From Minisyncoccota bacterium (GTDB lineage Bacteria; Patescibacteriota; Minisyncoccia; JAHIHE01; JAGLIN01): a DNA stretch of 64,000 nucleotides. Below the pieces are notes generated by a model. The model did no database searches, was not told the DNA's origin, and saw only the letters and a list, made by a program, of their open reading frames with translations. This document shows positions 26,734-60,431 of the stretch, in pieces. The translations under genes and the position numbers were made by a program. The stretch covers positions 143,191-207,190 of the forward strand of contig JBAZUT010000003.1 of NCBI GenBank assembly GCA_041661265.1, read 5' to 3'. Positions within the stretch are counted from its first letter, which is position 1; every line of letters starts with the position of its first letter.

Positions 26734-26812
26734 AAAAAGGGATTGTTACAGTTATAATTTTCAATTCTCAATTTACAATTTTAGTTAAATCGTAAACAAT
26801 AACTGGCTAGCC

Positions 26813-28069: not shown

Positions 28070-28075
28070 CCAATC

Positions 28076-29104: not shown

Positions 29105-29108
29105 TTAT

Positions 29109-31049: not shown

Positions 31050-31078
31050 TTGACTAAGTTGGGATATTGTGGTATAAT
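31050..31078 (+). promoter_or_regulatory. Near-consensus extended -10 sigma70 promoter for the giant gene
   Basis: TTGACT, a 17-bp spacer and TGgTATAAT. The TATAAT lies inside the ORF-track N-terminus (MWYN...), which argues that the true start is the ATG at 31112. Confidence 0.5.
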
Positions 31079-31111
31079 GAAAAGTCAATATTTACCCCTA
31101 AATTCAAATCT

Positions 31112-34100: not shown

Positions 34101-36793
34101 ATCAGCAAAAACTTGAAAATAGGATAAACGAAATAAACGAAAATCCCAGCGCGAGACCTGCCGAAACTCCAAAGGAAACAACAAACGAAACAGCAGAGAT
34201 CGAAACAATGAGCGATGAAGATATCAAGAAAGAAACCGATACTGATGCTCTTCAGGAAAAGATCGACGAAACCATCGACTACCTGAAAAATACTGAAAAC
34301 ATATCCGAAGAAGACCATTCGAGGCTTTCCGTGTATATAGATAATCTGCAGATCAGGAAAAGCGAATTGGAAAAGATATTGATCAGCAAGGGATACAAAA
34401 AAATAAACGCGGGAATTAAGGATCTGAATAAAAACATGATACAGATCGAACGGACATCCGAAACACAAGAGATTGAAAACATCAAAAATGCAAAAACCGT
34501 AAAAGAGCTGAGCGATGGAATCAGGAATATCGAAGCCAAGGGCTTTGACGGAAAGGATATCGCCAACATCAAGAAACTGAAAGATGTCATGGAGAACATA
34601 TTCTCTCAAATTGCAGATGAGAAAGGCGGAAAGCTCAAGAATGACGTAAACTCGCCGGACTTCAGGAATATAGTAACCGATTCCGCCAAAGACGCTACGG
34701 CAAAATCGTATATCGTGGCGTTATTTGCAGCGATCGAAAATATCAGATCAGAACGCAGAATTGAATTAAACGTCGGAGATAAAATAAGAATGAAAGAAAA
34801 AGACGGACAGGTCCGCGATGGATGGATCGTGACAAAGATCGACGGCAAAAATGCCGAAGTTCAAAACGATAAAAACGGAGAGATTCTTGAAACGACCCTT
34901 GGCGAATTGGCCGGCTGGCAGGACGATAAGCTTATGGAAGAAGCAAAGAGAATAAAGGATAAAGAAGAAGAGATCAAGCTGAGAGAATATGAACTGCAGT
35001 TAAACGGCGGCGAAACAGAAAAGGACGAGAAACTGAATAAGCTGAAAAGCGAGCTGAAAGAATTAAAGGGAGTTAAGACCGGGAAAGATGAGAAAAAGGA
35101 AGGGCCTCAAACCTATGGGGAAATCGTTGAAAACATGAAAAAAATGGGAGAATTCCTTGAAAAAAGAAAAGTTGAACTTTCAAAGATCAATAGCGACGAA
35201 CAAATACAGAAGATCAAGGACAAGGTCAGCAGAGGCGAGAAATTGAGCGAAAAAGAAACCTCACAATACAAATCGATGTTCATGGCAAAAGACGAGGTTA
35301 CGATCTCCGAGATCGGCATATCTGCGATACAGAACGCAGACCTGTACAAGATCGACCTCCCATCCCTATCGCATGAGGAAGCAATGAAAGTTCTGGATCG
35401 GCGCATAAAAGCCAGTAAAGTGGATCTTTTTCTTCATGAGAAATTGAGAAGCTCCATTCGTTCCTGCAACGAAAAAATATCCCAGATGGATGAGGGAAGA
35501 CGTGGGGTATATGGCGCAATCGCAGACGGCATTTTGCGCGCCGCAAAACATATCCCGATCATAAAGAATTATACTTATCCGAATCTCGAAGCAAAAACAG
35601 AGCAGGAAAAGAAAAGAGAAGAAGGCATCAAAGAGGGAGCGACCGTGAGCATAAAAGAGAAAAAAGGTATAAGTGAAAAATGGAAGATCGTGAAAATCGA
35701 AGGTAATAAGGTTATCGTCGAAAAAGAGAACAGGGCCATGAAAGAATTCAAAGAAAAAGATCTGATGAAATGGAACAGCATAACCGAAAAAGGTAAATTC
35801 AAAAAAGGCGACAAGATTAGGGTCATGGTTGACGGCAAGATCGGAACTGATTGGGTCATCGAGAATGTCGAAGACAATAAGATCTTGGCTGCAAACGATA
35901 AAGCCAAAACGGAAAAAACGGTCAAAAAAGAAGATATCGTCAGCATTCAGGAAAAAGCCGCGGACAAGGAAAGCTTTAAGGATCTCCTGAGGGAACTGAA
36001 TGAGTTAAAAAGCAAGGATCTGGATATGACAAATATCAAAGATATGGCAAGTTTTGACAAGACATCAAAAGCATTGAAAACCAAATTCAATGAGATGTCG
36101 CAAAAAACGTCCTATTTTGAGGGTTTGGAAGATAAAGCGAAGAATGACATTGTGAATGTATTCAATATAGACCTTAATTGGTACAATGAATGCGTCAGAA
36201 AGAAAAAGACTGAAGAGAAAATGAAAGATAGGGAGCAGGACAAAAAAGGATTCAACGACAAAGTAGAGCAGCACAAAAATCTTATAAAAAGACTGCCGGA
36301 TGAACTGAAGGATTTCAAGGAAAGCCTTGAAAAGTTCATTGAATTTGCGAGCCAAACATATCATGAAACAAAATATTCAGACGAACCTGCCGACAATGAT
36401 AATGAGAAAGAAGAAAAGACTCTGCTGAAAAAGATGTTCACAGGAAAAGAGATCAGGGCGATCAAGGACAGTGAAGATGCTGATGAATTGATCGAGGCTG
36501 TTGAAAAATTTAAAACGGAGCTTAAACCTCAAATAAAGGATCATAAGGCCATAGAATCATGCTATTTGGTTTTGGACGATCTTGCCAACGACTCCAAGAG
36601 GAACAAAAATATAAGAAAATATACAAGAGATAAAATAAGGGACGAGATAGAAAAAATCGAAGATGACAATGCAAAGAAATACCTTAGAGCGGTTTTGGAG
36701 AAAATCGACGGACTGATCACGTCAAAAAAAGCTGCTGTTGGAGACAAGCCCAAGAAAACATCGAAAAACAAATCCAAAACGCGGAAAAAATAG
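31112..36793 (+). CDS. Giant (about 1,893 aa) charged coiled-coil protein with four KOW/SH3-like small beta modules
   Basis: Continuous ORF rich in K/E/D heptad-like segments. Four related modules of roughly 45 aa sit near 32570 (GDYIRIAERQNNQISLIEV), 34773 (GDKIRMKEKDGQVRDGWIVTKI), 35636 and 35815 (GDKIRVMVDGKIGTDWVIENV). Confidence 0.6.
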   Translation: MEFRGNEDPKSSAEQLKRFETEKEKLETIYDYLINGKDKEGNEITTREGKNRAKQDKKEIKRNITELTNKINVISATLGKHQEESSTDKKEIEEQGDDKETGAEYFGSSMEDISLVASTILGETDKTVEKLDSRGSQNIQKLENAKATQKELGEAKKNEDQISSESKSEAEKLKSKLLELTFPEMVAVDGLDNQQLENKLNEVENFLKINKIDVAFEEDQEIKSDVEKKLSKAMIAIGAYRRDLLQKKLGIGGIGDDTKMPPSEKLEIPKHIDLDLKNNDNLEALKPILEEGNHHEIVAEIMKIAGLKPEELQNFDYRIESNKDKSTAEIVFSKKDSMDKEFTIAIDLSGGKIEKITDEDRLRMFNELTDLFAERGDLIKQRSNAKDKEEIRRIDADLSAVNSKLDSLYKKIDRPETISAFDDSEKDKIKKIGEILRSARVTDSFDYMSGTGSADLVEDTIRKRGGFKRPDDPKKEQQAPQENIKIGQTYECINPYFDFYKKGDYIRIAERQNNQISLIEVDSDGKQLSRSIISDNDSEIDEFLKCFKEIDLEPNSSVNNNEKTMEQIPIEPISGAESNDDNLSIERFDFENISDKEDLSNRLFEFGKKLEESNLRTEREISTDLLLFLQNKSLGHLESAKMQIDKCTNENAKNKLQELIVKCEEIVKNEPKPKEDNKAEKTETEKFEDIRKKWKWYESVIDGCENHPDWNIKRIIENLEYFTSHPFFKEDLLEYGLDQNENNRKTAENIRNEELNKSIKMFEKWISVEDDFMKKSEEIKKTYNESSGNRKKEDIIKSLKESLENLDSSVLDGTELEDNDENKKTGLAIQSNIFRKLLEELEGKKEEIAKAEPIKEGEEQKQSKEQENGSLLGIKIKTAEDVGKMTNDEFMSAGGEAFAKYEELESGKDFETLKTTDEFLVFAGYLNILTSEHDKRTREGRIEVKKHRIASNEEINALDMKSLQEELSRTEIYLNYIKTNKSQEDWFSSEFSDYGLYQQKLENRINEINENPSARPAETPKETTNETAEIETMSDEDIKKETDTDALQEKIDETIDYLKNTENISEEDHSRLSVYIDNLQIRKSELEKILISKGYKKINAGIKDLNKNMIQIERTSETQEIENIKNAKTVKELSDGIRNIEAKGFDGKDIANIKKLKDVMENIFSQIADEKGGKLKNDVNSPDFRNIVTDSAKDATAKSYIVALFAAIENIRSERRIELNVGDKIRMKEKDGQVRDGWIVTKIDGKNAEVQNDKNGEILETTLGELAGWQDDKLMEEAKRIKDKEEEIKLREYELQLNGGETEKDEKLNKLKSELKELKGVKTGKDEKKEGPQTYGEIVENMKKMGEFLEKRKVELSKINSDEQIQKIKDKVSRGEKLSEKETSQYKSMFMAKDEVTISEIGISAIQNADLYKIDLPSLSHEEAMKVLDRRIKASKVDLFLHEKLRSSIRSCNEKISQMDEGRRGVYGAIADGILRAAKHIPIIKNYTYPNLEAKTEQEKKREEGIKEGATVSIKEKKGISEKWKIVKIEGNKVIVEKENRAMKEFKEKDLMKWNSITEKGKFKKGDKIRVMVDGKIGTDWVIENVEDNKILAANDKAKTEKTVKKEDIVSIQEKAADKESFKDLLRELNELKSKDLDMTNIKDMASFDKTSKALKTKFNEMSQKTSYFEGLEDKAKNDIVNVFNIDLNWYNECVRKKKTEEKMKDREQDKKGFNDKVEQHKNLIKRLPDELKDFKESLEKFIEFASQTYHETKYSDEPADNDNEKEEKTLLKKMFTGKEIRAIKDSEDADELIEAVEKFKTELKPQIKDHKAIESCYLVLDDLANDSKRNKNIRKYTRDKIRDEIEKIEDDNAKKYLRAVLEKIDGLITSKKAAVGDKPKKTSKNKSKTRKK

Positions 36794-39462: not shown

Positions 39463-41928
39463 ATGGAAATCGATTTTATTGATCTGGTCATTACAGTCGG
39501 CATTTTTGATTTTGCCGTGTTGTTTTTTGTTTTTTTTATTTTTTGTTTTTTTGTCTACTTTATCTCAAACTTGAAAAGCTCGGGACAGCTTTCGCGCTCG
39601 CTGAATATGACCGTTCTCCGGATCGCTGTGCCGAAAAACAACCAAAAAGAACAGAAAGAAACAGGCGAAGCGGAAAAGGAAAGTATTTCCATAATGGAAC
39701 ATCTTTTCGCAAGCTTGAGCAATATCAGGGAAGAGTCTATGAAGAAGCTGATCTATGGCCCATTTTATCTTTCTTTCGAGATATCTACGCCGATAGACAG
39801 CAATGAAATTTTTTTCTATGTTTCATGCCCGAAAAAGTTCCAGTCGATAATCGAAAAACAGATACATAGCTTTTATTCAGACGCGGAGATCAAAAAGATC
39901 GACGACTACAATTCATTCGTTCCCAACGGAAAAAGCGCAGGATGCTATTTGAAACTCAAAAAAACCACCGCATTCCCTCTGAAAACATACAGAAGACTCG
40001 AAGCCGATCCGATCTCAAGCATAACCAATGCGCTCAGCAAGATCCCTGTCGGAAAAGGCGCAGCCATACAGATCATAATCAAACCGACAGATAATCTCTG
40101 GCACCAGGAAAGCACTGAGCTCATCAAAGAAATGCAAAAGGGCAGAGGATTCGGCGGAAAAAAACAATCTTCGACCGTAAAAGCGATCGGCGAATTTGCA
40201 AAGATCGCTGCCGGAACAGACTCAAAGAAGGATGAAAAGAAAAAGCAGGAAGAACTTCAGATAAAACTTACATCTTCTCAGGAAGAAACGATGAAAGCCG
40301 TTTCCGAGAAAGCGACTAAGGTCGGATTTATGACCAATATACGGATAGTCACATCAGCTCCTACGCTTGAAGAAGCAAAAATGACGCTGAACGAGATTGA
40401 GAATTCATTCACTCAATTCGGTTCACCGGACCTCAACTCATTCGAGATCAGCGAGCTTGTGGGGGGAAGTCTCAATCAGGCAATATATAATTTTATATTC
40501 AGAAATTTCGACAAGTCGCGGAAGATCATCCTCAACACGGAAGAGCTTGCCAGCATATATCATTTCCCGATCATGTCGACACAGACCCCTCAGGTCAATT
40601 GGCTGAAATCAAAACAGGCGCCGGCGCCGAACAATATCGTCGAAAAGGGATTGATATTGGGGCACAATACATACAGAGGGATCGACACGATCATAAAGAT
40701 CGGACGCGAAGACAGAAGAAGGCACATGTACGTCATCGGACAGACCGGAACCGGAAAGTCGGCTTTCCTCGGCGAACTCATTAAGCAGGATATAAAAAAT
40801 GGCGACGGCATATGTCTTATAGACCCGCATGGCGATCTTGTTGAAGAGGCACTGGGTTCGGTTCCAAAAGACAGAGCTGAGGACGTCGTGCTTTTCGATC
40901 CGTCAAACATGCAGAAGCCGATGGGGTTGAACCTTCTTGAATATGATCCGAATTATCCCGAGCAAAAGACGTTTGTCATCAATGAAATGATCAAGATCTT
41001 CGATAAATTATATGATCTGAAATCCACAGGCGGACCGATGTTCGAGCAATATATGAGAAATGCGATGCTTCTTATCATGGAAGATCCCGCCTCAGGATCC
41101 ACGCTGATCGAAATCTCAAAAGTTCTTGCGGATGCGGAGTTCAGAAAATATAAATTATCGAAATGCAAGAATTATGTCGTCAAGAATTTCTGGCAAAAAG
41201 AAGCTGAAAAGGCCGGCGGGGAAGCGGCTCTTGCGAATATGGTACCCTACATCACAAGCAAGCTGACACAATTCATATCCAACGACACAATGCGACCGAT
41301 CATCGGCCAGCAGAAAAGCTCCATAAATTTCAGAGAAATAATGGATAATCGCAAGATCCTTCTTGTGAACCTTTCAAAGGGAAGGATCGGAGAAATGAAC
41401 GCATATCTTTTGGGACTTGTTATTGTCGGAAAAATACTGGTTTCATCGCTCAGCAGAACCGACATGCCGCAGGAAGAAAGAAAAGATTTCTATCTATATA
41501 TCGACGAGTTCCAGAATTTCACAACCGACAGCATTTCAACCATACTTTCTGAAGCGAGAAAATATCGATTGTGCCTCAACATAGCGCATCAATTCCTCGG
41601 CCAGCTTCCCGAAGAGATCCAAAAGTCCGTATTCGGAAACGTCGGAAGCATAATCTCTTTCAGGATCGGCCCCGAGGACGCCGAATTTATGACAAAACAA
41701 TTCATGCCCGTATTTGATGAACAGGACCTTATCAACATCGACAACTACAACGCCTACGTAAAACTTATGATATCGGGAACCATAAGCAGGGGATTTAATA
41801 TGGCCACATTCCCGCCGCTCAAGACAAATCTCGAGATCGCAAGCGCAATTAAAGAGCTTTCTTCACTTAAATATGGCCGTGATAGAGAAGTTATCGAACG
41901 CGAGATAATACAAAGAACGCTGATCTAG
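39463..41928 (+). CDS. VirD4/TrwB/TraG-family type IV coupling-protein-like P-loop ATPase with an N-terminal TM anchor
   Basis: N-terminal TM helix (VITVGIFDFAVLFFVFFIFCFFVYF). The Walker A block MYVIGQTGTGKSAFLGELIKQDIKNGDGICLIDPHGDLVEE is colinear with the TrwB block ATGTGKSVLLRELAYTGLLRGDRMVIVDPNGD. The Walker B is YLYIDEFQNF (TrwB has FIDELASL). Total length is 821 aa. Confidence 0.65.
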   Translation: MEIDFIDLVITVGIFDFAVLFFVFFIFCFFVYFISNLKSSGQLSRSLNMTVLRIAVPKNNQKEQKETGEAEKESISIMEHLFASLSNIREESMKKLIYGPFYLSFEISTPIDSNEIFFYVSCPKKFQSIIEKQIHSFYSDAEIKKIDDYNSFVPNGKSAGCYLKLKKTTAFPLKTYRRLEADPISSITNALSKIPVGKGAAIQIIIKPTDNLWHQESTELIKEMQKGRGFGGKKQSSTVKAIGEFAKIAAGTDSKKDEKKKQEELQIKLTSSQEETMKAVSEKATKVGFMTNIRIVTSAPTLEEAKMTLNEIENSFTQFGSPDLNSFEISELVGGSLNQAIYNFIFRNFDKSRKIILNTEELASIYHFPIMSTQTPQVNWLKSKQAPAPNNIVEKGLILGHNTYRGIDTIIKIGREDRRRHMYVIGQTGTGKSAFLGELIKQDIKNGDGICLIDPHGDLVEEALGSVPKDRAEDVVLFDPSNMQKPMGLNLLEYDPNYPEQKTFVINEMIKIFDKLYDLKSTGGPMFEQYMRNAMLLIMEDPASGSTLIEISKVLADAEFRKYKLSKCKNYVVKNFWQKEAEKAGGEAALANMVPYITSKLTQFISNDTMRPIIGQQKSSINFREIMDNRKILLVNLSKGRIGEMNAYLLGLVIVGKILVSSLSRTDMPQEERKDFYLYIDEFQNFTTDSISTILSEARKYRLCLNIAHQFLGQLPEEIQKSVFGNVGSIISFRIGPEDAEFMTKQFMPVFDEQDLINIDNYNAYVKLMISGTISRGFNMATFPPLKTNLEIASAIKELSSLKYGRDREVIEREIIQRTLI

Positions 41929-42098: not shown

Positions 42099-42180
42099 AT
42101 TTCACTATCACACCCAATAAGCCGTTTTAAAGGCCGGGTATTGCCAATTTGGCTGGAATTGATATAATGTTCTAGTATCT

Positions 42181-42253
42181 GCGGGTGTCGTATAACGGCT
42201 TATTATGCTAGCCTTCCAAGCTGGAGACGTGGGTTCGACTCCCATCACCCGCT
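42181..42253 (+). tRNA. tRNA-Gly (anticodon TCC)
   Basis: GCGGGTG acceptor stem, anticodon stem CTAGC/GCTGG with loop CTTCCAA, T-arm GTGGG-TTCGACT-CCCAT, and discriminator U. Confidence 0.75.
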
Positions 42254-42285
42254 CATCGATAATGAAAAATGCAGCATAAAAAAAC

Positions 42286-44268
42286 TTGATGATATTAAAA
42301 CAAAATATTTACGCGGTCAAGAAAAAAACAAAACAACTAAAATCGTTTTATGCGTTTATGTTGTTTTTTTGTGCCTTTTTCATTTATTCACCTTTTATAT
42401 TTTCCGGATACGCAAAAGCTGACACGCTTAATGACAAAGTTAATTTCCTCGTCGATTCTTCATATGACTCGAATAACCGGTCGAATATCGATACGACACT
42501 GAGAAAGATCAGCAATTACGCTTTTTTTTATGTCGAAAACGAATATTACGATTCCCTTGGATATGCCGAACAGGTTAAATTCGATTCCGACCTTGAAAAT
42601 CTTGCTTCCAGTTTTGATAACACGATATATCCCAGAATGCGCAATATCTTCGGGGATGAATGGAGTCCCGGAATTGACAACATGGAACACATCACAATAC
42701 TTTTCACAAAAACAAAAGAGAATGTCGGCGGTTATTTCAATCCCAACGACGAGTATCCGAAATCAAATGTCGTCGATGACAAAAGCAATGAGAGAGAAAT
42801 GCTCTATCTGAACGCAATTTTTGCAGGCAATGACAGGATAGAAAGTTTTATAGCCCATGAATTTCAGCACATGATAACGTGGTATCATAAAACTAAACTT
42901 AGAAATATCAATGACGACATCTGGCTGAACGAATCCAGATCGGAATATGCATCGACCGCGATAGGATATGATGACGACTATCAGAAAAGCAATCTTCGCG
43001 CCAGAGTCGAGAATTTCATGCAAAATCAGACTGACTCGCTTACGGAATGGCAGAACAAGATCCAGGATTATTCTTCCGTAAATCTCTTTTCTCAATACCT
43101 CGCCGATCATTTCGGAGGCGACACCTTCAGGACTATGATAGGCAATGATACTGCCGGCATCGAAAGCATAAATAAGGCGCTCAGCGAAAATGGCTTCACG
43201 AGCAGTGTTTTTTCCGATATTTTTTCGAATTGGAGCGTGGCCAATTATCTGAACAACAGATATTATCTTGACGGAAAATATGGATACATTAATCCAAATC
43301 TTACATATGACAATTTCCATCTGGCACCGACAAAGACCTATTTTATCGGCAACGACGATATTCCCGTCAGCATATCAGCTTCCATTAAAGACTGGAGTTC
43401 GAGATATTTTGAAATAAAACCGGCCAATAACCTGACGGGCTTGAATATCGAGATAAGCTTTAACGGCGATAATTCGGGTAAATTTGCTGTTCCATATGCG
43501 CTCATGTCCGGAGATGCGGTTGTTTCCGTGAGTAAAGCTATTCTTGACAGGAATCAGGATAATAAAATACTGGTCAAAAACTTCGGAACAGATATCACTT
43601 CCGTCATATTGATGCCGAATAGCCAGAAAAAAACAGAGGGATTCGGGAGCGAGATAGAATCATATTCATTTTCCATTTCCGTTAAGACGATCATCGGAGA
43701 ACTATACCCCGACGGCACAATTCTAAAATCATACAAAAATCCTGAAGTATATCTGATCGAGGACGGAAAGAAGAGGTGGATCACGAGCGCTGCGGCTTTT
43801 ATTTCAAACGGATACAGCTGGAATAACATAACCTATATAAATTCTAACGAACTCGACTTTTTTGAAAGAGGAGAAAATATTTATGCAAAAGACCTGAAAC
43901 CCGACGGCACTCTCATTAAGGGCAGCGGACCGGAGGTTTATATTGTTGAAAACGGAATGAAAAGATGGATAACGACAGCCGGAGTTTTCGTGTCGAGGGG
44001 CTATAAATGGGAAAACATCATAACTGTGTCGGAAAACGAACTCGGTTCATATACAGAAGGTCAGGATATATCTTTCCAGAATCTGAAACCCGACGGCACT
44101 CTCATTAAGGGCAGCGGACCGGAGGTTTATATTGTTGAAAACGGAATGAAAAGATGGATAACGACAGCCGGAGTTTTCGTGTCGAGGGGCTATAAATGGG
44201 AAGAGATCGTCGTGATCCCGGACATAGACTTGAACTCTTATGCGGACGGATTGGATATAGACAGATGA
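42286..44268 (+). CDS. Secreted protein with an HExxH (zincin-like) motif and three C-terminal repeats of about 63 aa
   Basis: Signal/TM helix LKSFYAFMLFFCAFFIYSPFIF. An AHEFQHM motif is present. The three C-terminal repeats (YPDGTILK...VYLIEDGKKRWITS...GYSWNNI) are related to those of the downstream hydrolase. Confidence 0.55.
   Translation: MMILKQNIYAVKKKTKQLKSFYAFMLFFCAFFIYSPFIFSGYAKADTLNDKVNFLVDSSYDSNNRSNIDTTLRKISNYAFFYVENEYYDSLGYAEQVKFDSDLENLASSFDNTIYPRMRNIFGDEWSPGIDNMEHITILFTKTKENVGGYFNPNDEYPKSNVVDDKSNEREMLYLNAIFAGNDRIESFIAHEFQHMITWYHKTKLRNINDDIWLNESRSEYASTAIGYDDDYQKSNLRARVENFMQNQTDSLTEWQNKIQDYSSVNLFSQYLADHFGGDTFRTMIGNDTAGIESINKALSENGFTSSVFSDIFSNWSVANYLNNRYYLDGKYGYINPNLTYDNFHLAPTKTYFIGNDDIPVSISASIKDWSSRYFEIKPANNLTGLNIEISFNGDNSGKFAVPYALMSGDAVVSVSKAILDRNQDNKILVKNFGTDITSVILMPNSQKKTEGFGSEIESYSFSISVKTIIGELYPDGTILKSYKNPEVYLIEDGKKRWITSAAAFISNGYSWNNITYINSNELDFFERGENIYAKDLKPDGTLIKGSGPEVYIVENGMKRWITTAGVFVSRGYKWENIITVSENELGSYTEGQDISFQNLKPDGTLIKGSGPEVYIVENGMKRWITTAGVFVSRGYKWEEIVVIPDIDLNSYADGLDIDR
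43894..44202 (+). repeat. Two 120-nt stretches identical at the nucleotide level (period 189 nt) within the CDS, indicating a recent tandem duplication
   Basis: CTGAAACCCGACGGCACTCTCATTAAGGGCAGCGGACCGGAGGTTTATATTG...GGCTATAAATGGGAA occurs at 43894-44013 and again at 44083-44202. Confidence 0.8.
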
Positions 44269-44354
44269 TCACAAAAGCGGCTTGTTTCTGATGAGCTGTT
44301 TTTTTTATCGATAGCGCCAAACGGAACAATATGCTATAATGTGGTCATAGAAAT

Positions 44355-47300
44355 ATGATTATTACAAAATTAAATTCAAAGAAATTACCCTATTCTGCTA
44401 TTTTATTCCTAGCAGTATTTTTTGCCTTGTTCGAAAACATCGCATATGCATCGAATTCTATCGCGCCTGAAATAATACCCCGATCCGTCTGGGGAGGAAG
44501 CAAAACGACCCCGGATTGGCCAGTTGAATACGGCAATGCGGAAAAATTCGTAATTCACCACACCGCCAGCTCCACTCTCACTCCCGATGCGGACGGAAGC
44601 GGTAAATACACCGACATGGTGGAAAGCATATTCGATTATCACAGCGAAAAAAAAACCTGGTATGACGATGATGGGGAGTATGTCGGATTCGGAGATATAG
44701 GATACAACTACATCATAGATCCGAATGGGAATATTTATGAAGGCCGAGCCGGCGGGAACGGGAGCACCGGCGGACACGTGAAAGGATTCAATGTCGGCAG
44801 CATCGGCATTTCCGTTCTCGGAAGGTATCAAGGATATCTCAATTCCAAGAACGAGAACGTACCATCCCACCCCGTCACGGATTCGATCCTGGATTCTCTG
44901 AAAAATCTGATCGGCTGGCTTGCTTCTGCGAATAACATAGACCTGAACGCTACGACGGAATTCCATGGAAAAAATATAGACGGGATCGTCGGACACAGGG
45001 ACCTTTCGGCAACGATATGCCCGGGAAATGACCTTTATTCAAAACTCAGCGAGATACAGAATTCTGCCGTCATCAAAAAGACGGAATTCGACAAATACGC
45101 CTATCAGATTCCGGGCGACCGGTCGATATACGTCATCGACGAAGGCTATAAGCTGAAATTTAACTCGTTAGGGGAGCTTCCAAGCGGACACAGGAACAAA
45201 AATGTCATAGCCGCTTCCGAAGCTCAATTGGACCTTTTCAGATATAAGGATTCAACGATATATCCCGATGGATCGCTATTGCAGGAATTCGGTTCTAATG
45301 CGGTTTATTATATCGACAAACAGGAGAAAAGACATCTGAATATGAAAGGCGAAGAGTTTTCAAAAATGGGATTCGATAATTCCAAGATCATATACGTTTT
45401 TAAAAGCGATCTGAATATTTACAAAGAGGGGAAAAACATCAAATACGGACCGGACGGAAAATTGGTCAAAGACGCAAGTTCGAAAGTATACCTTATTCAG
45501 AGCGGAAAGAAAAGAGGATTCACCTCGGCAAAGCTTTTCGAGTTCCTCGGATATAGATGGAAGAATATCGAACTAGATGAAAACATCGGTCTTTATCTTG
45601 ATGGAGGCGATATGCTGTATCCGGACAAATCCCTGGTCAAAACCGCCGCCAGTCCCAATGTCTATTTCATTGAAAATAAGCAGAAAAGAAAAATAACCTC
45701 GGATACCCTGTTCAATAAGCTGGGATACAAGACAAAAAATGTGATCACGATCGAAGATGTCGAACTCTCCCATTTTCCGAGCGCAAAAAATATGACATAC
45801 CCCGACGGCACGCTCCTACAGCAAGAGAACAGGCCTTCGGTTTATCTCGTCGCAAATGGCAGTGTCAGGATATTTCCTTCAGCTGAATTATTCCTGAAAC
45901 TCGGATATAAATGGAAGAACGTGACCGCGATCAAGGCAGATGAGTTCAAGAATTATTCCTATGCAGGAAGGGTCCTGCAACCAAATGGGACATTGATCAG
46001 ACCATTGGACGGATCGGACATTTATCTTGTCGACAATGGCACAAAGAGAAAGATATCTTCGGCTTTAATGTTCGAAAAGCTCGGATACAAATGGAACAGC
46101 GTACTCCCGCTTCCACCGGACCAGATCAATGAATATCCTTCCGGAGAGAATTTAAAGTATCCGGATGGAACATTGATCAAAAAGGAAGGATCCGGGATCA
46201 TTTACAGAATCGACGGCGGGAAGATCAGGGAATTCACATCCCAAACGCTTTTCGAAAAGACCGGAAGCAAGTGGACGGATGTCGTGACTCTTCCGGCCAA
46301 TGAATTTGCAGCGTATGCATATGGCGGGATCGTAATGTATCCGAATAAGACTTTGCTCCGGGAAAAGGGAAAGGATGCCATCTATGTCATAAAAGATCAA
46401 AAAGCTTTGGGCATTAAAAGCCTGGCTGAATTCAATAAAGCCGGATATAAATGGAAGGATGTGATTGATCTGCCGAAAGAAGAAATAACCCTGATGATTG
46501 ATCCGGGCAAGGCGTTCCAGAGGGATGCAACACCGCAATACATTCCGGCCAAATCTCCGGCTAAAAGCGCGGATGCATTGACCAGCCAGGAAAAAACCGA
46601 GCCTCCCGCGTCGAACACTTCCGCCAACAAACCGGTTAATCCCGACATAAAGATAGCAATATACTCGATCACGGAAGGAAGTGTAAGGATGACGGCCAAC
46701 GGACCGTATAAAGTGGATCATATGAACGGAGACGGTACTATCCAGAAAACGGAAAAAAGATCCGCGAACGAGCAGACCGAAATAGCATATTTCAATTCCG
46801 CGTCCTATGTAAAATTCACCCCATCAAGCAAAGATACAGTGCTTGAGGTCGTGTCGTATAACGATCCATCCTGGAACAATGCCGTGAATGATAACAGATT
46901 CAGAGGTAATATTATAATCAAATACTCGGATATTTCCGATAAGCTATGGATCGTAAATGAGCTTCCTCTGGAAGATTACGTTAATGGAATAGCCGAAACT
47001 ACGAGCGAAAGCCATAACGAATATCTCAAGGCGTTCAGTATAATTGCAAGAACTTATGCAATGTATTATATTGAAAGGGGAGGCAAGCACATCGGAGAAC
47101 CTTTCCACCTGAAGAACAGCAGAAATGGAAATGGCAATGATCAGTCATATAAGGGATATAATTTCGAGATAAGAGCCGATAAGATAGTTTTGGCAAGCAG
47201 AGAAACTGCGGGAAAAATAATAACCTTTAACGGAAAACCGATTGTAGCGGCGTATTCATCGGATTCGGGCGGCGTTACAAAAAGCGCCTGTGATGTTCTG

Positions 47301-47510
47301 AGCAAAACTTATTGCAACAGCGACTTTTCCTATCTTTCCGGCGGCGCCAATGATCCAGATGGAACCGTTCACGACCGGAACAAGATGGCATCGAGTCATG
47401 GAGCCGGTATGAGTGCGGTGGGAGCCCTCAAGATGGCAGAAAACGGCACCTCCTTGCAGAACATGATCGCGCACTATTACCCTGGAGTTGAAATTATTAA
47501 ATATTATTGA
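44355..47510 (+). CDS. Secreted multidomain peptidoglycan hydrolase: PGRP/Amidase_2, about ten 60-aa repeats, and a SpoIID/LytB domain
   Basis: Signal peptide, then the Amidase_2 core (FVIHHTAS...GYNYIIDPNGNIYEGRAGG...ATICPGN). About ten tandem repeats follow (YPDG[ST]L[IL]..VY[LY]IxNGxKRxIxSxxxFxxLGYKWxNV). The C-terminal SpoIID signature is LEDYVNGIAE...ARTYAMYY...YSSDSGGVT. Confidence 0.75.
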   Translation: MIITKLNSKKLPYSAILFLAVFFALFENIAYASNSIAPEIIPRSVWGGSKTTPDWPVEYGNAEKFVIHHTASSTLTPDADGSGKYTDMVESIFDYHSEKKTWYDDDGEYVGFGDIGYNYIIDPNGNIYEGRAGGNGSTGGHVKGFNVGSIGISVLGRYQGYLNSKNENVPSHPVTDSILDSLKNLIGWLASANNIDLNATTEFHGKNIDGIVGHRDLSATICPGNDLYSKLSEIQNSAVIKKTEFDKYAYQIPGDRSIYVIDEGYKLKFNSLGELPSGHRNKNVIAASEAQLDLFRYKDSTIYPDGSLLQEFGSNAVYYIDKQEKRHLNMKGEEFSKMGFDNSKIIYVFKSDLNIYKEGKNIKYGPDGKLVKDASSKVYLIQSGKKRGFTSAKLFEFLGYRWKNIELDENIGLYLDGGDMLYPDKSLVKTAASPNVYFIENKQKRKITSDTLFNKLGYKTKNVITIEDVELSHFPSAKNMTYPDGTLLQQENRPSVYLVANGSVRIFPSAELFLKLGYKWKNVTAIKADEFKNYSYAGRVLQPNGTLIRPLDGSDIYLVDNGTKRKISSALMFEKLGYKWNSVLPLPPDQINEYPSGENLKYPDGTLIKKEGSGIIYRIDGGKIREFTSQTLFEKTGSKWTDVVTLPANEFAAYAYGGIVMYPNKTLLREKGKDAIYVIKDQKALGIKSLAEFNKAGYKWKDVIDLPKEEITLMIDPGKAFQRDATPQYIPAKSPAKSADALTSQEKTEPPASNTSANKPVNPDIKIAIYSITEGSVRMTANGPYKVDHMNGDGTIQKTEKRSANEQTEIAYFNSASYVKFTPSSKDTVLEVVSYNDPSWNNAVNDNRFRGNIIIKYSDISDKLWIVNELPLEDYVNGIAETTSESHNEYLKAFSIIARTYAMYYIERGGKHIGEPFHLKNSRNGNGNDQSYKGYNFEIRADKIVLASRETAGKIITFNGKPIVAAYSSDSGGVTKSACDVLSKTYCNSDFSYLSGGANDPDGTVHDRNKMASSHGAGMSAVGALKMAENGTSLQNMIAHYYPGVEIIKYY

Positions 47511-47517
47511 TAGTTCA

Positions 47518-47859
47518 ATGGAGCTGAACAAAAAAATATATTTTTCACTGATCGTATTTGCGATCAGTATTGCACAAGAGACCAATGCCACTCTGTCGAC
47601 ATTCGATTTTACTTCTCCAATTGAAAAAACTGACGTCAAAATCATATTGACTGACTTTCTTAAATGGCTGCTTACCGTGGTAGGATCATTCGCTTTTTTA
47701 GCGCTGATCATAGCAGGTATTTCATATATGACATCGATGGGCAATGTTGAAAAGGCTAAAAAGGCGAAAAAATCCGTGCTGTGGATAATCGGCGGACTAG
47801 TATTAATCCTGCTGTCATACTCCATTCTCGTAGTACTGGACAGTATTTTTACCGGTTAA
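47518..47859 (+). CDS. VirB2/TrbC-like pilin-type small protein, paralog 1
   Basis: Signal peptide, then two hydrophobic helices separated by a basic loop: FLKWLLTVVGSFAFLALIIAGISYMTSMGNVEKAKKAKKSVLWIIGGLVLILLSYSILVVL. The start was moved to the ATG at 47518 because 47488 overlaps the upstream gene. Confidence 0.5.
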   Translation: MELNKKIYFSLIVFAISIAQETNATLSTFDFTSPIEKTDVKIILTDFLKWLLTVVGSFAFLALIIAGISYMTSMGNVEKAKKAKKSVLWIIGGLVLILLSYSILVVLDSIFTG

Positions 47860-47877: not shown

Positions 47878-48216
47878 ATGAGATCAATTACGCATAGGAT
47901 CATATTCGTACTTTTGGTTTTTAGCATCATCGGCGCAGACAATGCACATTGCTTAACCACAACCTATAAACTTCCTCCGACAACATCAACAACGGATTTT
48001 CAGATGTTGCTGGTTAATTTATTACACTGGATGCTTTCCGTGATCGGTCCGATCGCATTGATAATGCTTATCATAGCAGGGATGATGCATATAACATCAG
48101 CAGGAGATCCTCAGAAGGCGGCTTCAGCAAAAAAAGTCTATATGGCCATGGCAGGCCTGATCATTGCGTTATTATCCTATTCAATGCTCGTATTATTAAA
48201 TAATATGTTTACATAA
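47878..48216 (+). CDS. VirB2/TrbC-like pilin-type small protein, paralog 2
   Basis: Same architecture as paralog 1: LLHWMLSVIGPIALIMLIIAGMMHITSAGDPQKAASAKK...LLSYSMLVLL. Confidence 0.5.
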   Translation: MRSITHRIIFVLLVFSIIGADNAHCLTTTYKLPPTTSTTDFQMLLVNLLHWMLSVIGPIALIMLIIAGMMHITSAGDPQKAASAKKVYMAMAGLIIALLSYSMLVLLNNMFT

Positions 48217-49876: not shown

Positions 49877-49935
49877 TCTGAATGCAAAAAAAGACGGCTA
49901 AGAGTCCGGCTTTTTTAATTCTGTCTTATTTCCCG

Positions 49936-50730
49936 CTAAGAGACCAGAAACCTTCCGACAAGATAACCGACGCCAAAAGGCCCTTCGTAACTCAGCTTTT
50001 GAAATTTACTTTCGGAATTGGCAAGCGCGCCCAGAGCTATGATGATCGATCTCAGTCCGCATTCTCCCGCCTCTTCGATCAGGTTCGAATCGATTCTCAA
50101 AATTTCATCCGCTTTGCCGGCTTCCAAAAGTTCAACGATAATGCTGTCGAATTTTTTCCCTGCCGGAGAATATCCCGCCGGCGCATCAGGCGTCAGGCGA
50201 TGCGAAAGATCTCCGCTTGCAACCAAACCCACTTTGCGGTCCGTATTCTGAATAGCTTCATATATCGCTTTTCCGAATTCAAGATGCTTCCCGTAATCAA
50301 GCTCGGAAAATGCGACCGGAACGATCTTCATATCAGAAACATGCTTTGTGAGAAAATAAAGCGGGACCATGCTTCCATGGTCCAAGACGATCTCCCTTGC
50401 CAGTATCTCGGCCGGCACTCCTTTTGCATCAGATATATTTTTAATGCTCATAGCAAGATCGGTATCATTCGCAAATTTCATCGAAATATCATCTGCTCCA
50501 AAATCCAAAAAATCTCCTTCCAGTGTTTCTTGCCCGATTATCGTCATAAAATCCGTCTGATATGGGCCGTGCGGAGATATGACAACGATCGTTTCAAGCC
50601 CGAGATCGCGGACTTCTCTGGCCAGTGTTTTCATGGCCTGCACGGTGGCACTCACCAGCGAAAGATTCTCCCTTCCGATCGATGGGATGATGATGGGCGG
50701 ATGGGGACATATTGCGGCAAATTTCAACAT
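49936..50730 (-). CDS. Memo/LigB-fold protein (candidate AmmeMemoRadiSam system protein B)
   Basis: 264 aa with AAICPHPPIIIP and VVISPHGPYQ His-containing motifs typical of the class III extradiol-dioxygenase/Memo fold. It sits directly downstream of the radical SAM partner. Confidence 0.5.
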   Translation of the reverse strand: MLKFAAICPHPPIIIPSIGRENLSLVSATVQAMKTLAREVRDLGLETIVVISPHGPYQTDFMTIIGQETLEGDFLDFGADDISMKFANDTDLAMSIKNISDAKGVPAEILAREIVLDHGSMVPLYFLTKHVSDMKIVPVAFSELDYGKHLEFGKAIYEAIQNTDRKVGLVASGDLSHRLTPDAPAGYSPAGKKFDSIIVELLEAGKADEILRIDSNLIEEAGECGLRSIIIALGALANSESKFQKLSYEGPFGVGYLVGRFLVS

Positions 50731-50751
50731 AAGCTTTTATTAATGATAAAT

Positions 50752-51801
50752 CTACAGAATAAAGTTTAATTTTTCTTGGCAATTCGGGCACTTTCCGTCT
50801 TTATCGAATCTTTCGATATAATATCCCACCCTCTTGACGCAAAGTTCTGAACATTTGGGACAATAGGTGTTCTCGGTCGTGCCCCCGGGAACGTTTCCCA
50901 AATAGACATATTTCAAACCTGCGTCTTTTCCGATCTTGTATGCTTTTTGAACGGTCTTCAGCGGAGTGTCGGGAAGGTTCTGCAGTTTCCACGATATTTC
51001 CCCTGAGAACGCGCTTAGGTGCCATGGCGTATCGCTTCCAAGCTCATTGAAGATGAATTCGGCTATATTTCCAAGCATTGCACTGTCGTCGGACAGAGTG
51101 GGGATGACCAAAGTGGTGATCTCGACCCACACCCCGAGTTTCTTCATCTTCCTGCAATTATCAAGAATAGGACCAACGCCGGCTCCGCAGCTTTTCTTAT
51201 AGAATTCATCATCGAATGATTTTATATCGACATTTGCGGCATCAAGAAATGGCACGATCAAGTTCAGGGTTTCATCGCTCATATATCCGTTCGTCACCCA
51301 AGTGTTCTTTATACCTTTCTTTTTCGCGATCTTCATCGTATCAAGCGCATATTCAAGAAAGATCGTCGGTTCCGTATATGTATAGGAAATGCTCGGGCAT
51401 TTTGATTTGATCGCCTCCGCAACAATTTCCTCCGGAAGAATATCCTGTCCGACATCAAGCATGCTCTTGTCTTTTTTCACAAGCTGCGATATCTGCCAAT
51501 TCTGGCAATTATCGCAGCGGAGATTGCAGCCAACCGTGGCGACTGACAGCGAGTGAGAACCTGAAAGAAAATGAAAATACGGTTTTTTCTCGATAGGATC
51601 AACGCTTAGCGAGATCACTTTTCCGTAATTAAGCGCAAAAAGCACGCCCTCGATATTCTTTCTCACTCCGCAGATCCCGAACGCGGCAGGCATGACGAGG
51701 CACCTATGCGCGCAGGTGTTGCATCGAACCTTTTTATTTTCAAGTTTTTCGTATAGATATGATTCTTTCATAAACACGGATATTTTATTCAACAAATACA
51801 C
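50752..51801 (-). CDS. PflA-like radical SAM enzyme (AmmeMemoRadiSam system radical SAM protein type)
   Basis: N-terminal Cys cluster CNTCAHRC...FGICGV, canonical CNLRCDNCQNW (CxxxCxxC), and a C-terminal CPKC...CPNC cluster. Confidence 0.6.
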   Translation of the reverse strand: MYLLNKISVFMKESYLYEKLENKKVRCNTCAHRCLVMPAAFGICGVRKNIEGVLFALNYGKVISLSVDPIEKKPYFHFLSGSHSLSVATVGCNLRCDNCQNWQISQLVKKDKSMLDVGQDILPEEIVAEAIKSKCPSISYTYTEPTIFLEYALDTMKIAKKKGIKNTWVTNGYMSDETLNLIVPFLDAANVDIKSFDDEFYKKSCGAGVGPILDNCRKMKKLGVWVEITTLVIPTLSDDSAMLGNIAEFIFNELGSDTPWHLSAFSGEISWKLQNLPDTPLKTVQKAYKIGKDAGLKYVYLGNVPGGTTENTYCPKCSELCVKRVGYYIERFDKDGKCPNCQEKLNFIL

Positions 51802-52785: not shown

Positions 52786-53574
52786 ATGAACGCGCTATGC
52801 ATGAGAAATATATTGGGCGTTAAAATAAGCAGCATTACTTCCAAAGAAGTTCTTGATGATATCAAGATTTTTTTATTATCCGAAAACCAGCACCATATCA
52901 TCACTCTGAACCCGGAAATGATAGTGGAAGCGCAAAGCAATGACAGTTTCAAAAGTATTATCAATGAAGCAGACCTCTGTGTTGCAGATGGAACCGGCAT
53001 TTTATTGGCAGACAGATTGCTTAACGGAACCACTCTGCCGGAAAGAATAAGAGGCGTGGATCTCATGCTGGCAATTTGCACGCCGGATGTCATCAACAAT
53101 AAAAGAATATATCTTCTTGGAGCGGGGCAGGGGATAGCGAAAAGAACTGCGGAAGTTCTGAAAAAAAAATATCCGCATTTGAATATTGTCGGGGCGGAAG
53201 AAGGAATAGACATTAGAAGTCCAAAGTCCAAAGTCCAAAGTCCAAAAAAATACACGGAACAAAATGCAGAGCTGGTCGAACGGATCGTCAGAGCAAAGCC
53301 AGATATATTATTCGTCGCTTTCGGAGCTCCAAAACAGGAAATATGGATCCATGAGAACATAAAAAAGATCCCAAGCATCAGGCTTGCGATCGGCATCGGA
53401 GGTTCATTTGATTTCATTTCAGGAAGGATATATCGCGCTCCCCGCATTATGCAAAAATTAGGCATGGAATGGCTGTGGAGGCTGGTCCAAGAGCCGAAGA
53501 GATGCAAAAGGATCTATAACGCAACGATAAAATTCGGCTGGATGGTCCTGGAAAAAAAAATAAAAAGCACATAA
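52786..53574 (+). CDS. tagA: WecB/TagA/CpsF-family (GT26) glycosyltransferase
   Basis: ILGVKISSIT...HIITLNPEMIVEA...DLCVADGTGI and a C-terminal GGSFDF...GMEWLWRL. Confidence 0.7.
   Translation: MNALCMRNILGVKISSITSKEVLDDIKIFLLSENQHHIITLNPEMIVEAQSNDSFKSIINEADLCVADGTGILLADRLLNGTTLPERIRGVDLMLAICTPDVINNKRIYLLGAGQGIAKRTAEVLKKKYPHLNIVGAEEGIDIRSPKSKVQSPKKYTEQNAELVERIVRAKPDILFVAFGAPKQEIWIHENIKKIPSIRLAIGIGGSFDFISGRIYRAPRIMQKLGMEWLWRLVQEPKRCKRIYNATIKFGWMVLEKKIKST
53218..53245 (+). repeat. Heptanucleotide tandem repeat (AGTCCAA)x4 inside the tagA-like CDS, followed by an A5 run
   Basis: Read directly from the sequence; it encodes SPKSKVQSPKK. A 9-A homopolymer also occurs at 53161-53169 in the same gene. 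Confidence 0.8.
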
Positions 53575-59105: not shown

Positions 59106-60431
59106 ATGCTGAAAATAAACAAGAAGGTAACAATAGCCGTTTGTATGTTTTTAATAACGTCTTTTATTGTGACGCCTTTTTATGCCATAGAAGCGGATGT
59201 TGTCGATGAGATAGAAAGCCAGATCAAGGAAAAAAGCGATCAGATAAAAAACCTGGAAAATCAAGCTGCGGAATATAAGGATGTCATAAAAGACCTTCAA
59301 ATGAAACAACAAAGCTTGGATAATGAGATCGAGCTTTTAGATGCGCAGATCGCACAGCTCAATATCGAGATCCAAACGACGCAATCTCAGATCGATCAGG
59401 CCAATCTTGAGATCAATAATCTGCTCATAAGGATCCAGATCAAAGAGGAGGAGATCGGAAAGGAAAAAGAGATACTGCGAAGCCTTCTTCGAAAAATAAA
59501 CGAGTACGACGGAGAGTCTGCTTTCGAGATCCTTCTGAAAACCGAACAATTCTCTGATTTCATAAATCAATCTAATTACGTAGATAAGGTCGGGGAAAAG
59601 ATAAAAAGCACGCTGGACTCGCTGAAACTGATCAAAGGAGAGCTCGAGCAGGAAAAAGCAAATCTGGAAAGCAAGAAAAAAACGCTTGAAGATCTTAATA
59701 AGAAATTAACCGGACAAAAAGATGCCGCCAATTTGCAAAAACAATCGAAAGAAGATCTGCTGACTGACACCAAGGGAAAAGAAAATAAGTATCAAGATCT
59801 CCTGTTCAATGTAAAAAATCAAAAAAATTCGATCTTGGGCGACATCAATAAGCTGAAACGGGAGATGGAGACCGAGATCGCAAGGATCGCAGCGCTTGCT
59901 GAAAGACCCTCGGAAAATCTTGCATCTACGAGCTGGTATTTCACTCAGAACAACCCGAATTGGAAAGACAATACGATAGGATTTTCGGATTCCACCATAG
60001 ATGATTATGGGTGCGCTATTGCGGCAGTCGCGATGGTCTTCAAGTACTATGGCATTGACATAGATCCGGGAAGGCTCGCCAAACAGCCCATATTCTATTA
60101 CGACCTCATCGTCTGGCCGAAGCAATGGAGATATCTGGATCTGGTGAAAAATTCGGGCCACAAATCGGGCGGCCTGAACGAGGATGACTGGAATGTGGTG
60201 GACCGGGAGATCGCAAGCGGCCATCCGGTGATCGTTTTCATCAAAGCGCGGGGAAATGCCGGACATTATGTCGTGATCCACAGTAAAGACAGCAAGGGTT
60301 ATGTAGTACACGACCCCATGACCTGGAACAATCAATCCGGAGCGAATATCTATCTCTCAACCACAAGAAAATATCTGGAATCCATTTATAAGGGGAAAAC
60401 CGTAATAGATCAATACATCATTTATCATTGA
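59106..60431 (+). CDS. Signal-anchored coiled-coil protein with a C-terminal C39-like (Peptidase_C39_2/BtrH-like) cysteine peptidase domain
   Basis: N-terminal TM helix and long heptad coiled coils. The C-terminus has DDYGCAIAAVAMVFKYYGI (Cys nucleophile context) and GHYVVIHS...VHDP (His/Asp). Confidence 0.5.
   Translation: MLKINKKVTIAVCMFLITSFIVTPFYAIEADVVDEIESQIKEKSDQIKNLENQAAEYKDVIKDLQMKQQSLDNEIELLDAQIAQLNIEIQTTQSQIDQANLEINNLLIRIQIKEEEIGKEKEILRSLLRKINEYDGESAFEILLKTEQFSDFINQSNYVDKVGEKIKSTLDSLKLIKGELEQEKANLESKKKTLEDLNKKLTGQKDAANLQKQSKEDLLTDTKGKENKYQDLLFNVKNQKNSILGDINKLKREMETEIARIAALAERPSENLASTSWYFTQNNPNWKDNTIGFSDSTIDDYGCAIAAVAMVFKYYGIDIDPGRLAKQPIFYYDLIVWPKQWRYLDLVKNSGHKSGGLNEDDWNVVDREIASGHPVIVFIKARGNAGHYVVIHSKDSKGYVVHDPMTWNNQSGANIYLSTTRKYLESIYKGKTVIDQYIIYH

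Follow-up and report, generated by a model that had tools for sequence, protein, structure and literature searches.

A patescibacterial protein joining a PGRP-type amidase, EccB-like repeats and a SpoIID/LytB domain on one chain

Why should a bacterium that does not sporulate encode, in one polypeptide, a peptidoglycan amidase and a domain of the SpoIID family, and on whose wall would such a protein act? The question is raised by a gene of an ultra-small Minisyncoccota bacterium (Patescibacteriota), located in a 64,000-nucleotide stretch of GenBank assembly GCA_041661265.1 (contig JBAZUT010000003.1, positions 143,191 to 207,190 of the forward strand; hereafter the window). The gene is an uninterrupted open reading frame (ORF) for 1,051 amino acids (aa), in which an N-terminal N-acetylmuramoyl-L-alanine amidase domain and a C-terminal SpoIID/LytB domain are separated by tandem repeats. 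Patescibacteria account for much of the diversity of bacteria and, to our knowledge, almost nothing is known of the ways in which they make, remodel or breach cell walls.

Our reading, which we regard as reasonably probable, is that the protein is a Sec-exported, wall-associated autolysin of a Paceibacteria-type Patescibacterium, degrading peptidoglycan in two steps with a single chain and mainly in the producer's own wall. In design it is a modular bifunctional autolysin, a known kind of protein in a new combination. It is identical to a 1,051-aa hydrolase found in public assemblies (P0001) and in a Logan contig. The amidase–SpoIID family is already in the databases, automatically annotated only as amidase: the NCBI name for full-length homologues is "N-acetylmuramoyl-L-alanine amidase". 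No connection between SpoIID and Patescibacteria or the candidate phyla radiation (CPR) was found in the literature searched. The parts of the gene, in window coordinates, are as follows (HMM, hidden Markov model).

44355..47510, + strand: amidase–repeats–SpoIID/LytB hydrolase gene (uninterrupted ORF, 1,051 aa)
44355..44453, + strand: putative signal peptide or membrane anchor, aa 1-33 (hydropathy scan and sequence)
44538..45029, + strand: Amidase_2/PGRP-type N-acetylmuramoyl-L-alanine amidase domain, aa 62-225 (Pfam)
45120..45245, + strand: degenerate partial repeat, aa ~256-297 (repeat HMM, iE 1e-4, model positions 14-56)
45258..46514, + strand: seven tandem ~60-aa EccB-like repeats, aa 302-720 (repeat HMM)
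46515..46661, + strand: low-complexity linker rich in P/S/T/A/K, aa 721-769 (translation)
46662..47507, + strand: SpoIID/LytB lytic-transglycosylase-type region, aa 770-1051, with the Pfam core at aa 862-958

Two enzymatic domains

A preliminary description of this locus had proposed a secreted chain joining the two domains, allowing that the SpoIID-like segment might be a chance motif match. Domain scans placed both families above their curated cut-offs, with the catalytic residues present. Amidase_2 (PF01510) was detected with E=2e-17 and 64.1 bits against a gathering score of 26, and is present in all 120 homologues listed. The domain aligned to the amidase-type PGRP structures 4z8i and 4zxm (E~5e-13). 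In the alignment to 4z8i the motif VIHHTA supplies the first zinc histidine, H68, and DIGYNY the catalytic tyrosine, Y117; the second zinc histidine (H214), the catalytic T220 and the cysteine ligand C222 all fall within the segment GHRDLSATICPGN in the PGRP alignment. The zinc ligands and motifs originally picked out by eye therefore align with catalytic or substrate-binding positions of a solved PGRP. In a family alignment of 43 members, H68 is conserved in 42 and Y117 and H214 in all; C222 was seen in 32 of the 43, the remainder having the appearance of a one-column alignment shift. Zinc ligands are missing from non-lytic PGRPs (PMC2837410). With H68, H214, C222, Y117 and T220 intact, the domain looks active from its sequence and is predicted to cleave the MurNAc-L-Ala bond.

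The C-terminal domain was matched by Pfam SpoIID (PF08486; aa 862-958, E=6e-12, 46.5 bits against a gathering score of 23) and by the NCBIfam model TIGR02669, SpoIID_LytB (105.5 bits against a cut-off of 83.3). A phmmer search with the SpoIID region retrieved the solved SpoIID structures 4rwr (3e-18) and 5i1t and 5txu (~1e-11). By residue count, E881, in the motif GIAETT, pairs with E77 of chain 5i1t, numbered E101 in full-length C. difficile SpoIID. This is the position of the catalytic glutamate (E101 in C. difficile, E88 in B. subtilis), and E881 is invariant in 43/43 family members. The stretch YSSDSGGVT (YSSDSGG at aa 967-973), on which the SpoIID assignment had first been based, pairs with FSTSNGRTE of B. 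anthracis SpoIID. Since Amidase_2 and SpoIID both pass their cut-offs and align to the catalytic positions of solved structures, a chance match does not account for them. Orthology to the sporulation protein was ruled out: the equivalog model TIGR02870 gave 82 bits against a cut-off of 234.75.

On intact peptidoglycan SpoIID by itself shows no activity; an amidase must act first, and the catalytic residue of SpoIID is E101 (PMC6221140). Fusing an active amidase to SpoIID makes functional sense for this reason. A lytic transglycosylase activity confined to denuded glycan has been established for the B. subtilis and C. difficile proteins (PMC6221140), and by analogy the same limitation is predicted for the SpoIID domain of the hydrolase. 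In a first step the zinc amidase would cleave MurNAc-L-Ala and strip the stem peptides; in a second, the SpoIID/LytB lytic transglycosylase would cut the denuded strands into anhydro-disaccharides. This order, stem peptides before glycan, is that of the preliminary description, and it agrees with published SpoIID biochemistry (PMC6221140). Export of the enzyme would depend on its N-terminus, which has a K-rich n-region, a hydrophobic segment (aa 11-33) and then AYA/S (hydropathy scan, translation), features that suggest a Sec signal peptide or anchor.

The repeat module

How would the enzyme be held at a wall? The obvious candidates are the repeats in its middle. An HMM built from the copies located seven full units of about 57-62 aa and one degenerate copy, where about ten had been counted by eye. 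The position of the degenerate copy is also occupied by a copy in most close homologues, and all 120 full-length homologues listed carry between three and eight (3-8) copies. When 1.84 billion representatives were searched exhaustively with a profile built from homologues, 8,647 proteins were recovered at E<=1e-3, of them 3,910 at E<=1e-10; a word-indexed homologue search with the repeat profile returned only 2 fragments. With such counts the array is more than a product of chance. Tandem Repeats Finder detected nothing in the DNA: at the protein level the repeats are ancient and have drifted apart, the one exception being a 189-bp duplication described below.

The repeat region gave no match at E<=1 to the Pfam families CW_binding_2, SH3b, PG_binding, LysM, SLH, LGFP or choline-binding, so the known Pfam wall-binding families were ruled out as its identity. 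Its sole Pfam match was to SH3_retrovirus, below threshold (E 0.018, aa 304-350), and no model covering the repeat was found in Pfam or NCBIfam. To this extent the earlier statement that the repeat fits no known wall-binding family holds; it fails in that a recognisable relative exists, namely the repeat domains of EccB. An AlphaFold2 model of a di-repeat (repeats 4-5, from a 63-sequence alignment) had a predicted local distance difference test score (pLDDT) of 95.4 and a predicted template modelling score (pTM) of 0.79. In the model each unit opens with three strands and a helix, followed by one more strand, a short helix and a linking strand (E-E-E-H-E-H(-E)). When the di-repeat was compared with the PDB by Foldseek, ranks 1-10 were all EccB proteins of ESX-1, ESX-3 and ESX-5 (EccB1/3/5), with E from 1e-3 to 6e-2 and probability 0.72-1.0. 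The next match, the wall-binding domain of the endolysin LysIME-EF1, was non-significant (E 0.3). The periplasmic part of EccB1 comprises four repeat domains, each a four-stranded sheet with two helices (PMC4769845), and the modelled fold agrees with that description of the EccB unit (about 55 aa, sheet plus two helices, in tandem).

Two further results point to EccB. An independent model of the repeats of the protein encoded upstream (see below) also matched EccB (E~1e-5 to 1e-4, probability 1.0). The Pfam EccB model, PF05108, matched two of the 64 other repeat-bearing proteins scanned, at E<=1e-4 with a best value of 1.7e-7. In two further proteins, sub-threshold matches (E~2-4e-3) fall within the repeats and cover model positions 190-249 and 413-460, which correspond to EccB R2 and R4. 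Wherever a score is shown, the PF05108 matches of these relatives are below the gathering score. Taken with the models, homology between the repeat and EccB is likely, not proven. No ESX genes were found in the 64-kb window, and the repeats form a simple tandem array within secreted enzymes.

EccB repeat domains have been described as weakly similar to PlyCB, the wall-binding subunit of a phage lysin (PMC4769845). As a direct structural match of the present repeat PlyCB was rejected, being absent from the top 50 PDB matches (Foldseek). Among viral structure predictions (BFVD), the di-repeat matched a protein of Rhodococcus phage Weasels2 (A0A1I9SA71, E=4e-10) and one of Streptomyces phage LukeCage (A0A345MGB2, E=2e-6), both uncharacterised, about 100-115 aa long and matched over nearly their whole length with a template modelling (TM) score of ~0.6; the C-termini of some phage lysins matched weakly. 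Phages of EccB-bearing hosts therefore also use the fold.

The distribution of the repeat bears on its role. Of 139 top matches that were new relative to the first homologue search, 24 had the amidase+SpoIID architecture and 99 had others, usually an N-terminal domain followed by about four repeats at the C-terminus. Partner domains, as seen by Pfam in 64 proteins, included subtilase S8, Peptidase_M23, glucosaminidase, staphylococcal-type nuclease (SNase) and CAP, as well as fn3, cohesin, CARDB, LGFP and others. The repeat, being attached to many unrelated secreted enzymes, thus has the behaviour of a general module for anchoring to the wall or surface. Proteins with the full-length architecture are frequent among Patescibacteria (Paceibacteria/Parcubacteria, Portnoy-, Terry-, Azam- and Yanofskybacteria, and others). 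More distant relatives keep the Amidase_2 front and the SpoIID back and have the middle replaced (loci L056-L058, L062, L067, L073 and L079): by N_BRCA1_IG Ig-like domains with or without CARDB in Peregrinibacteria, Peribacteria and Microgenomates, by eight LGFP repeats in metagenome-assembled genomes labelled "Actinomycetes", and in a Wirthbacteria protein by two PA14 domains, with EccB-like repeats following SpoIID. The catalytic pair is thus conserved across CPR classes while the middle is swapped, a classic modular design among wall hydrolases that supports a binding or spacer role for the repeats. In such a role the seven units and the degenerate one would form a stalk that tethers the enzyme to peptidoglycan or to a wall-linked glycopolymer and also spaces its two active sites. 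Separately, we note that five repeat-bearing ORFs lie within 20 kb at locus L032, and that large proteins (more than 1,500 aa) bearing two repeats are encoded just upstream of the hydrolase at loci L024 and L038. For two homologues the precomputed annotation lists PF25989, which scanning them directly with Pfam did not confirm.

In the window the repeat HMM found the repeat, outside the hydrolase, only in the ORF immediately upstream, at 42286..44268, which encodes an HExxH protein:

42289..44268, + strand: secreted M30 (lugdulysin/hyicolysin-type) zinc metallopeptidase (profile, AlphaFold2, Foldseek)

The three copies previously noticed in this protein were recovered by the HMM (aa 474-660, nucleotides (nt) 43705-44265). 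They follow the protease domain (HEFQH...WLNE) and a PPC/collagen-binding-like beta-sandwich. The family is conserved, annotated as hypothetical and without Pfam domains; PF10460 gave weak matches in 2/53 members. Its profile matched PDB 7bb8 with E=2e-20, HEFQH...WLNE aligning to HEYQH...WLNE, and Foldseek paired the AlphaFold2 model (pLDDT 88.3) with lugdulysin of Staphylococcus lugdunensis (7bb8/7bb9, E~7e-17, TM 0.60-0.67 on the target). Within the gene lies the 189-bp tandem duplication (43846-44208; 174 nt at 86% identity), which produced the second and third repeat units, identical in their first 40 residues. So recent a duplication indicates that repeat number is still changing.

Neighbouring genes and the substrate

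On whose wall, then, would the hydrolase act? The window reads, in order, a K/E-rich 1,908-aa ORF, two unknown ORFs, a VirD4/TraD-like ATPase, tRNA-Gly, the M30 protease and the hydrolase, followed by four VirB2-like pilins, a family 2 glycosyltransferase (GT2), a minus-strand AmmeMemoRadiSam pair, LigT and WecG/TagA. The nearest neighbours are (T4CP, type IV coupling protein):

39463..41928, + strand: membrane-anchored VirD4/TraD-like (T4CP-type) ATPase, linked only in the closest relatives
42181..42254, + strand: tRNA-Gly(UCC), between the ATPase and M30 genes
47518-47859, + strand: VirB2-like pilin 1, 113 aa, starting 8 nt after the hydrolase stop
47878-48216, + strand: VirB2-like pilin 2, 112 aa
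48225-48584, + strand: VirB2-like pilin 3, 119 aa
48588-48953, + strand: VirB2-like pilin 4, 121 aa
48974..49876, + strand: GT2 glycosyltransferase, rhamnosyltransferase-like (library scans)
49936-50730, - strand: Memo/AmmeMemoRadiSam system protein B homologue, 264 aa
50752-51801, - strand: AmmeMemoRadiSam radical SAM enzyme (319 bits against 220)

The pilins were recognised by Pfam T4SS_pilin/TrbC, the NCBIfam Mbov_0395 pilin-like model and gene calls with PF18895; the ORF of the first (47488-47859) overlaps the 3' end of the hydrolase gene. Arrays of 2-11 VirB2-like pilins are known in Patescibacteria (PMC12102498). Envelope genes elsewhere in the window (25177-30113 and 52786-53574) encode a Mur ligase, a DegT aminotransferase, a FemAB-family peptidyltransferase, an FtsQ-type POTRA protein and WecG/TagA, a set which suggests that the organism has an interpeptide-bridged peptidoglycan and a wall-linked glycopolymer. 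The remainder of the window holds housekeeping genes.

Which of these neighbours belong to the family as a whole can be judged from 85 related loci, from which the following counts were drawn.

GT2 within 3 kb downstream: 14/16 close relatives; 19/24 distant repeat-bearing members
Pilin gene within 0.7 kb downstream: 14/16 close; 0/24 distant
M30 protease upstream: 11/15 close; 0/22 distant
ATPase within 6 kb upstream: 6/13 close; 0/16 distant

An iterative search of flanks up to 10 kb likewise found no pilin genes near distant members. There the hydrolase is followed by a wall-glycopolymer cluster (GT2, GT4, Wzy_C, GT2, LytR_cpsA_psr, GT2 and an S41/CtpB-like peptidase). Since GT2 or wall-polymer genes lie downstream of the hydrolase in close and distant loci alike, its family-wide partner is cell-envelope biosynthesis, whereas the pilin and protease linkage, confined to closer relatives, is a later, lineage-specific addition. 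Most likely the enzyme acts mainly on the sacculus of its own producer, where it would serve in wall turnover, cell separation or the making of openings. In the window's sublineage it is probably co-expressed with the M30 protease, which bears the same anchor, and with the four pilins. PlyCB reportedly binds a polyrhamnose carbohydrate of the wall (bioRxiv 10.1101/2021.03.19.436156). In view of this, and of the rhamnosyltransferase-like GT2 and LytR_cpsA_psr neighbours, the ligand of the repeats could by analogy be a wall glycopolymer and not peptidoglycan, which we offer as speculation.

Several points weigh against an own-wall autolysin anchored in this way. The putative signal peptide is read from hydropathy and sequence. 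Even for EccB, the literature offers wall binding as no more than a hypothesis (PMC4769845). The hydrolase's own repeats gave no match to the Pfam EccB model at E<=1, and HMMER searches of PDB sequences with the repeat profiles gave nothing better than E 0.26 for the di-repeat and E 1.4 for the broad single repeat, so that the EccB link leans mainly on predicted structure. Function throughout the family is likewise judged from sequences and models. Synteny in small, compact and highly syntenic CPR genomes can reflect inheritance and not function, and pilins and a secreted protease, as the gene's immediate neighbours in this sublineage, fit a more specialised role.

One form such a role could take is that of a pilus or secretion-apparatus hydrolase, a stand-in for VirB1 or PrgK that, together with the M30 protease, opens the wall for a VirB2-like pilus or a machine resembling a type IV secretion system (T4SS). 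Action at the insertion of an apparatus had already been raised in the preliminary description. No + strand terminator-like site was seen between the M30, hydrolase and pilin genes, and the best promoter-like site of the region (42141-42168; TTGCCA-16-TATAAT plus an upstream TG) is located after the ATPase gene and before tRNA-Gly, which may head the M30-hydrolase-pilin transcription unit; promoter and terminator calls are consensus matches only. The site that would drive this block also splits the ATPase gene from it, and the ATPase, present upstream in some of the close relatives, resembles the thousands of orphan T4CP homologues that are seldom close to virB4 (PMC12102498). VirB1 homologues are missing from most VirB2-bearing Patescibacteria, where other hydrolases may substitute; in Ca. 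Southlakia epibionticum, essential peptidase and lysozyme genes adjoining virB4 have been suggested as such substitutes (PMC12102498). Amidase and SpoIID go unmentioned in that 2025 survey of Patescibacteria T4SSs. Against the pilin gene that follows the hydrolase here and in nearly all close relatives stand its absence from the flanks of all distant members and the GT2 and wall-polymer genes abutted by the hydrolase in their loci. Scans of the 64-kb window revealed no VirB4, VirB3, VirB6 or VirB8, and the ATPase is VirD4/TraD-like, so that a complete T4SS in the window was ruled out. The catalytic folds, too, differ from those of VirB1 and PrgK (SLT, CHAP). We consider an apparatus role unlikely; what stands of the suggestion is a lineage-specific possibility.

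We rate as distinctly improbable that the hydrolase is a weapon directed at a host, the repeat stalk reaching out to bind the host wall and the enzyme digesting it with the M30 protease for access or nutrients. Patescibacteria are largely host-dependent epibionts (PMC12102498), and a stalk of 7-8 modules could, judging by the model, hold the catalytic domains away from the cell. The same repeat occurs on exoenzymes of a scavenging type (nuclease, subtilases, M23), the partner protease is of the type of lugdulysin, a secreted staphylococcal protease, and phage proteins share the di-repeat fold. Throughout the family, however, the genes found in synteny are those for the producer's own wall polymers and peptidoglycan; one repeat family across diverse CPR, presumably with different hosts, argues against host-specific recognition, and neither a toxin/immunity pair nor a delivery signal was seen. 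It is very improbable that one of the domains only binds, as non-lytic PGRPs (PMC2837410) and the shortfall against TIGR02870 might suggest, leaving a single-activity hydrolase or an adhesin, for the zinc ligands and catalytic residues of lytic PGRPs are all present and conserved, the SpoIID glutamate is invariant and the SpoIID_LytB model is above its cut-off.

Some further observations concern the surroundings. An extended -10-like sequence, TGcTATAAT, lies at 44332-44340, 15 nt before the hydrolase ATG and with no obvious Shine-Dalgarno sequence in between, which hints at an internal promoter whose leader would be very short. The 1,908-aa ORF (31067-36793) is rich in K (14.6%) and E (13.4%) and has no transmembrane segment; it had no Pfam or NCBIfam match and no homologue in the 85 related loci, and its stretch has an unusually high AT skew (0.28-0.42) and GC skew. 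In a 441-aa protein (59106-60431) a Peptidase_C39-like domain occupies the C-terminal part and the N-terminal region resembles a coiled coil; no obvious ABC exporter linked to this protein was found in the window. The + strand ORF 49882..50769 (295 aa) was rejected as a gene, having no family match and overlapping the Memo-like minus-strand gene; it is probably a shadow ORF.

Comparison with known systems

Multi-domain peptidoglycan hydrolases encoded next to T4SS genes are familiar as VirB1, PrgK and TraG(pIP501). The likeness is one of position: their SLT, CHAP and LytM folds are unrelated to the Amidase_2 and SpoIID domains of the present protein, in which Pfam and NCBIfam detected no SLT/GH23 or CHAP domain and only Amidase_2 and SpoIID. 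Linkage of the hydrolase to T4SS genes is moreover restricted to one sublineage, with VirB4 not nearby. Within that sublineage, since it is placed between a protease with the same anchor and a VirB2-like pilin array, the hydrolase is a concrete candidate for the "missing VirB1".

The repeats resemble R1-R4 of EccB from the mycobacterial ESX (type VII secretion) systems in being sheet-plus-two-helices units of about 55-60 aa, arranged in tandem outside the membrane. EccB, however, has four repeats around a central core and sits in the membrane as part of a secretion machine, whereas 3-8 tandem repeats lie here inside enzymes. What emerges is a very large repeat family without a Pfam model, common to proteases, nucleases and other wall hydrolases and structurally related to EccB. 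It bears on surface display in CPR generally and on the proposed anchoring of EccB to the wall; should the repeat bind the wall, this would be the first functional evidence for a role of the periplasmic repeats of mycobacterial EccB. It seems conceivable, as a bolder and decidedly tentative suggestion, that the repeat, borne by thousands of secreted enzymes, is the principal and so far unrecognised anchor of Patescibacteria to the wall or a wall glycopolymer, a counterpart of SLH, LysM or CWB2, and the hydrolase either a core autolysin or the missing VirB1 equivalent by which VirB2-like pili would pass through the wall.

In layout the closest parallel is the major autolysin of staphylococci, Atl (AtlA/AtlE), with which the protein shares a signal peptide (a putative one here), a PGRP-fold amidase, wall-binding repeats (the binding being proposed here) and a C-terminal glycan-cleaving enzyme (PMC2837410). 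Atl acts on the cell's own wall, in daughter-cell separation (PMC2837410). Its C-terminal enzyme is a glucosaminidase in place of a SpoIID lytic transglycosylase, its repeats are of another family, and it is proteolytically split into two enzymes.

In chemistry the parallel is the peptidoglycan-degrading relay of SpoIIP and SpoIID in endospore formers (the DMP/engulfment machinery), with which the hydrolase shares the predicted sequence of amidase then SpoIID, a homologous SpoIID domain and its conserved catalytic glutamate. The zinc-binding Cys/His turn of C. difficile SpoIID is not evident in the aligned region of the hydrolase. SpoIIP and SpoIID are separate proteins held by SpoIIM during sporulation, whereas the hydrolase is a single chain from a non-sporulating organism, and its amidase is of the Amidase_2/PGRP type and not of the SpoIIP type. 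Both steps of the relay would thus be found fused in organisms that never sporulate, in an arrangement conserved across several CPR classes.

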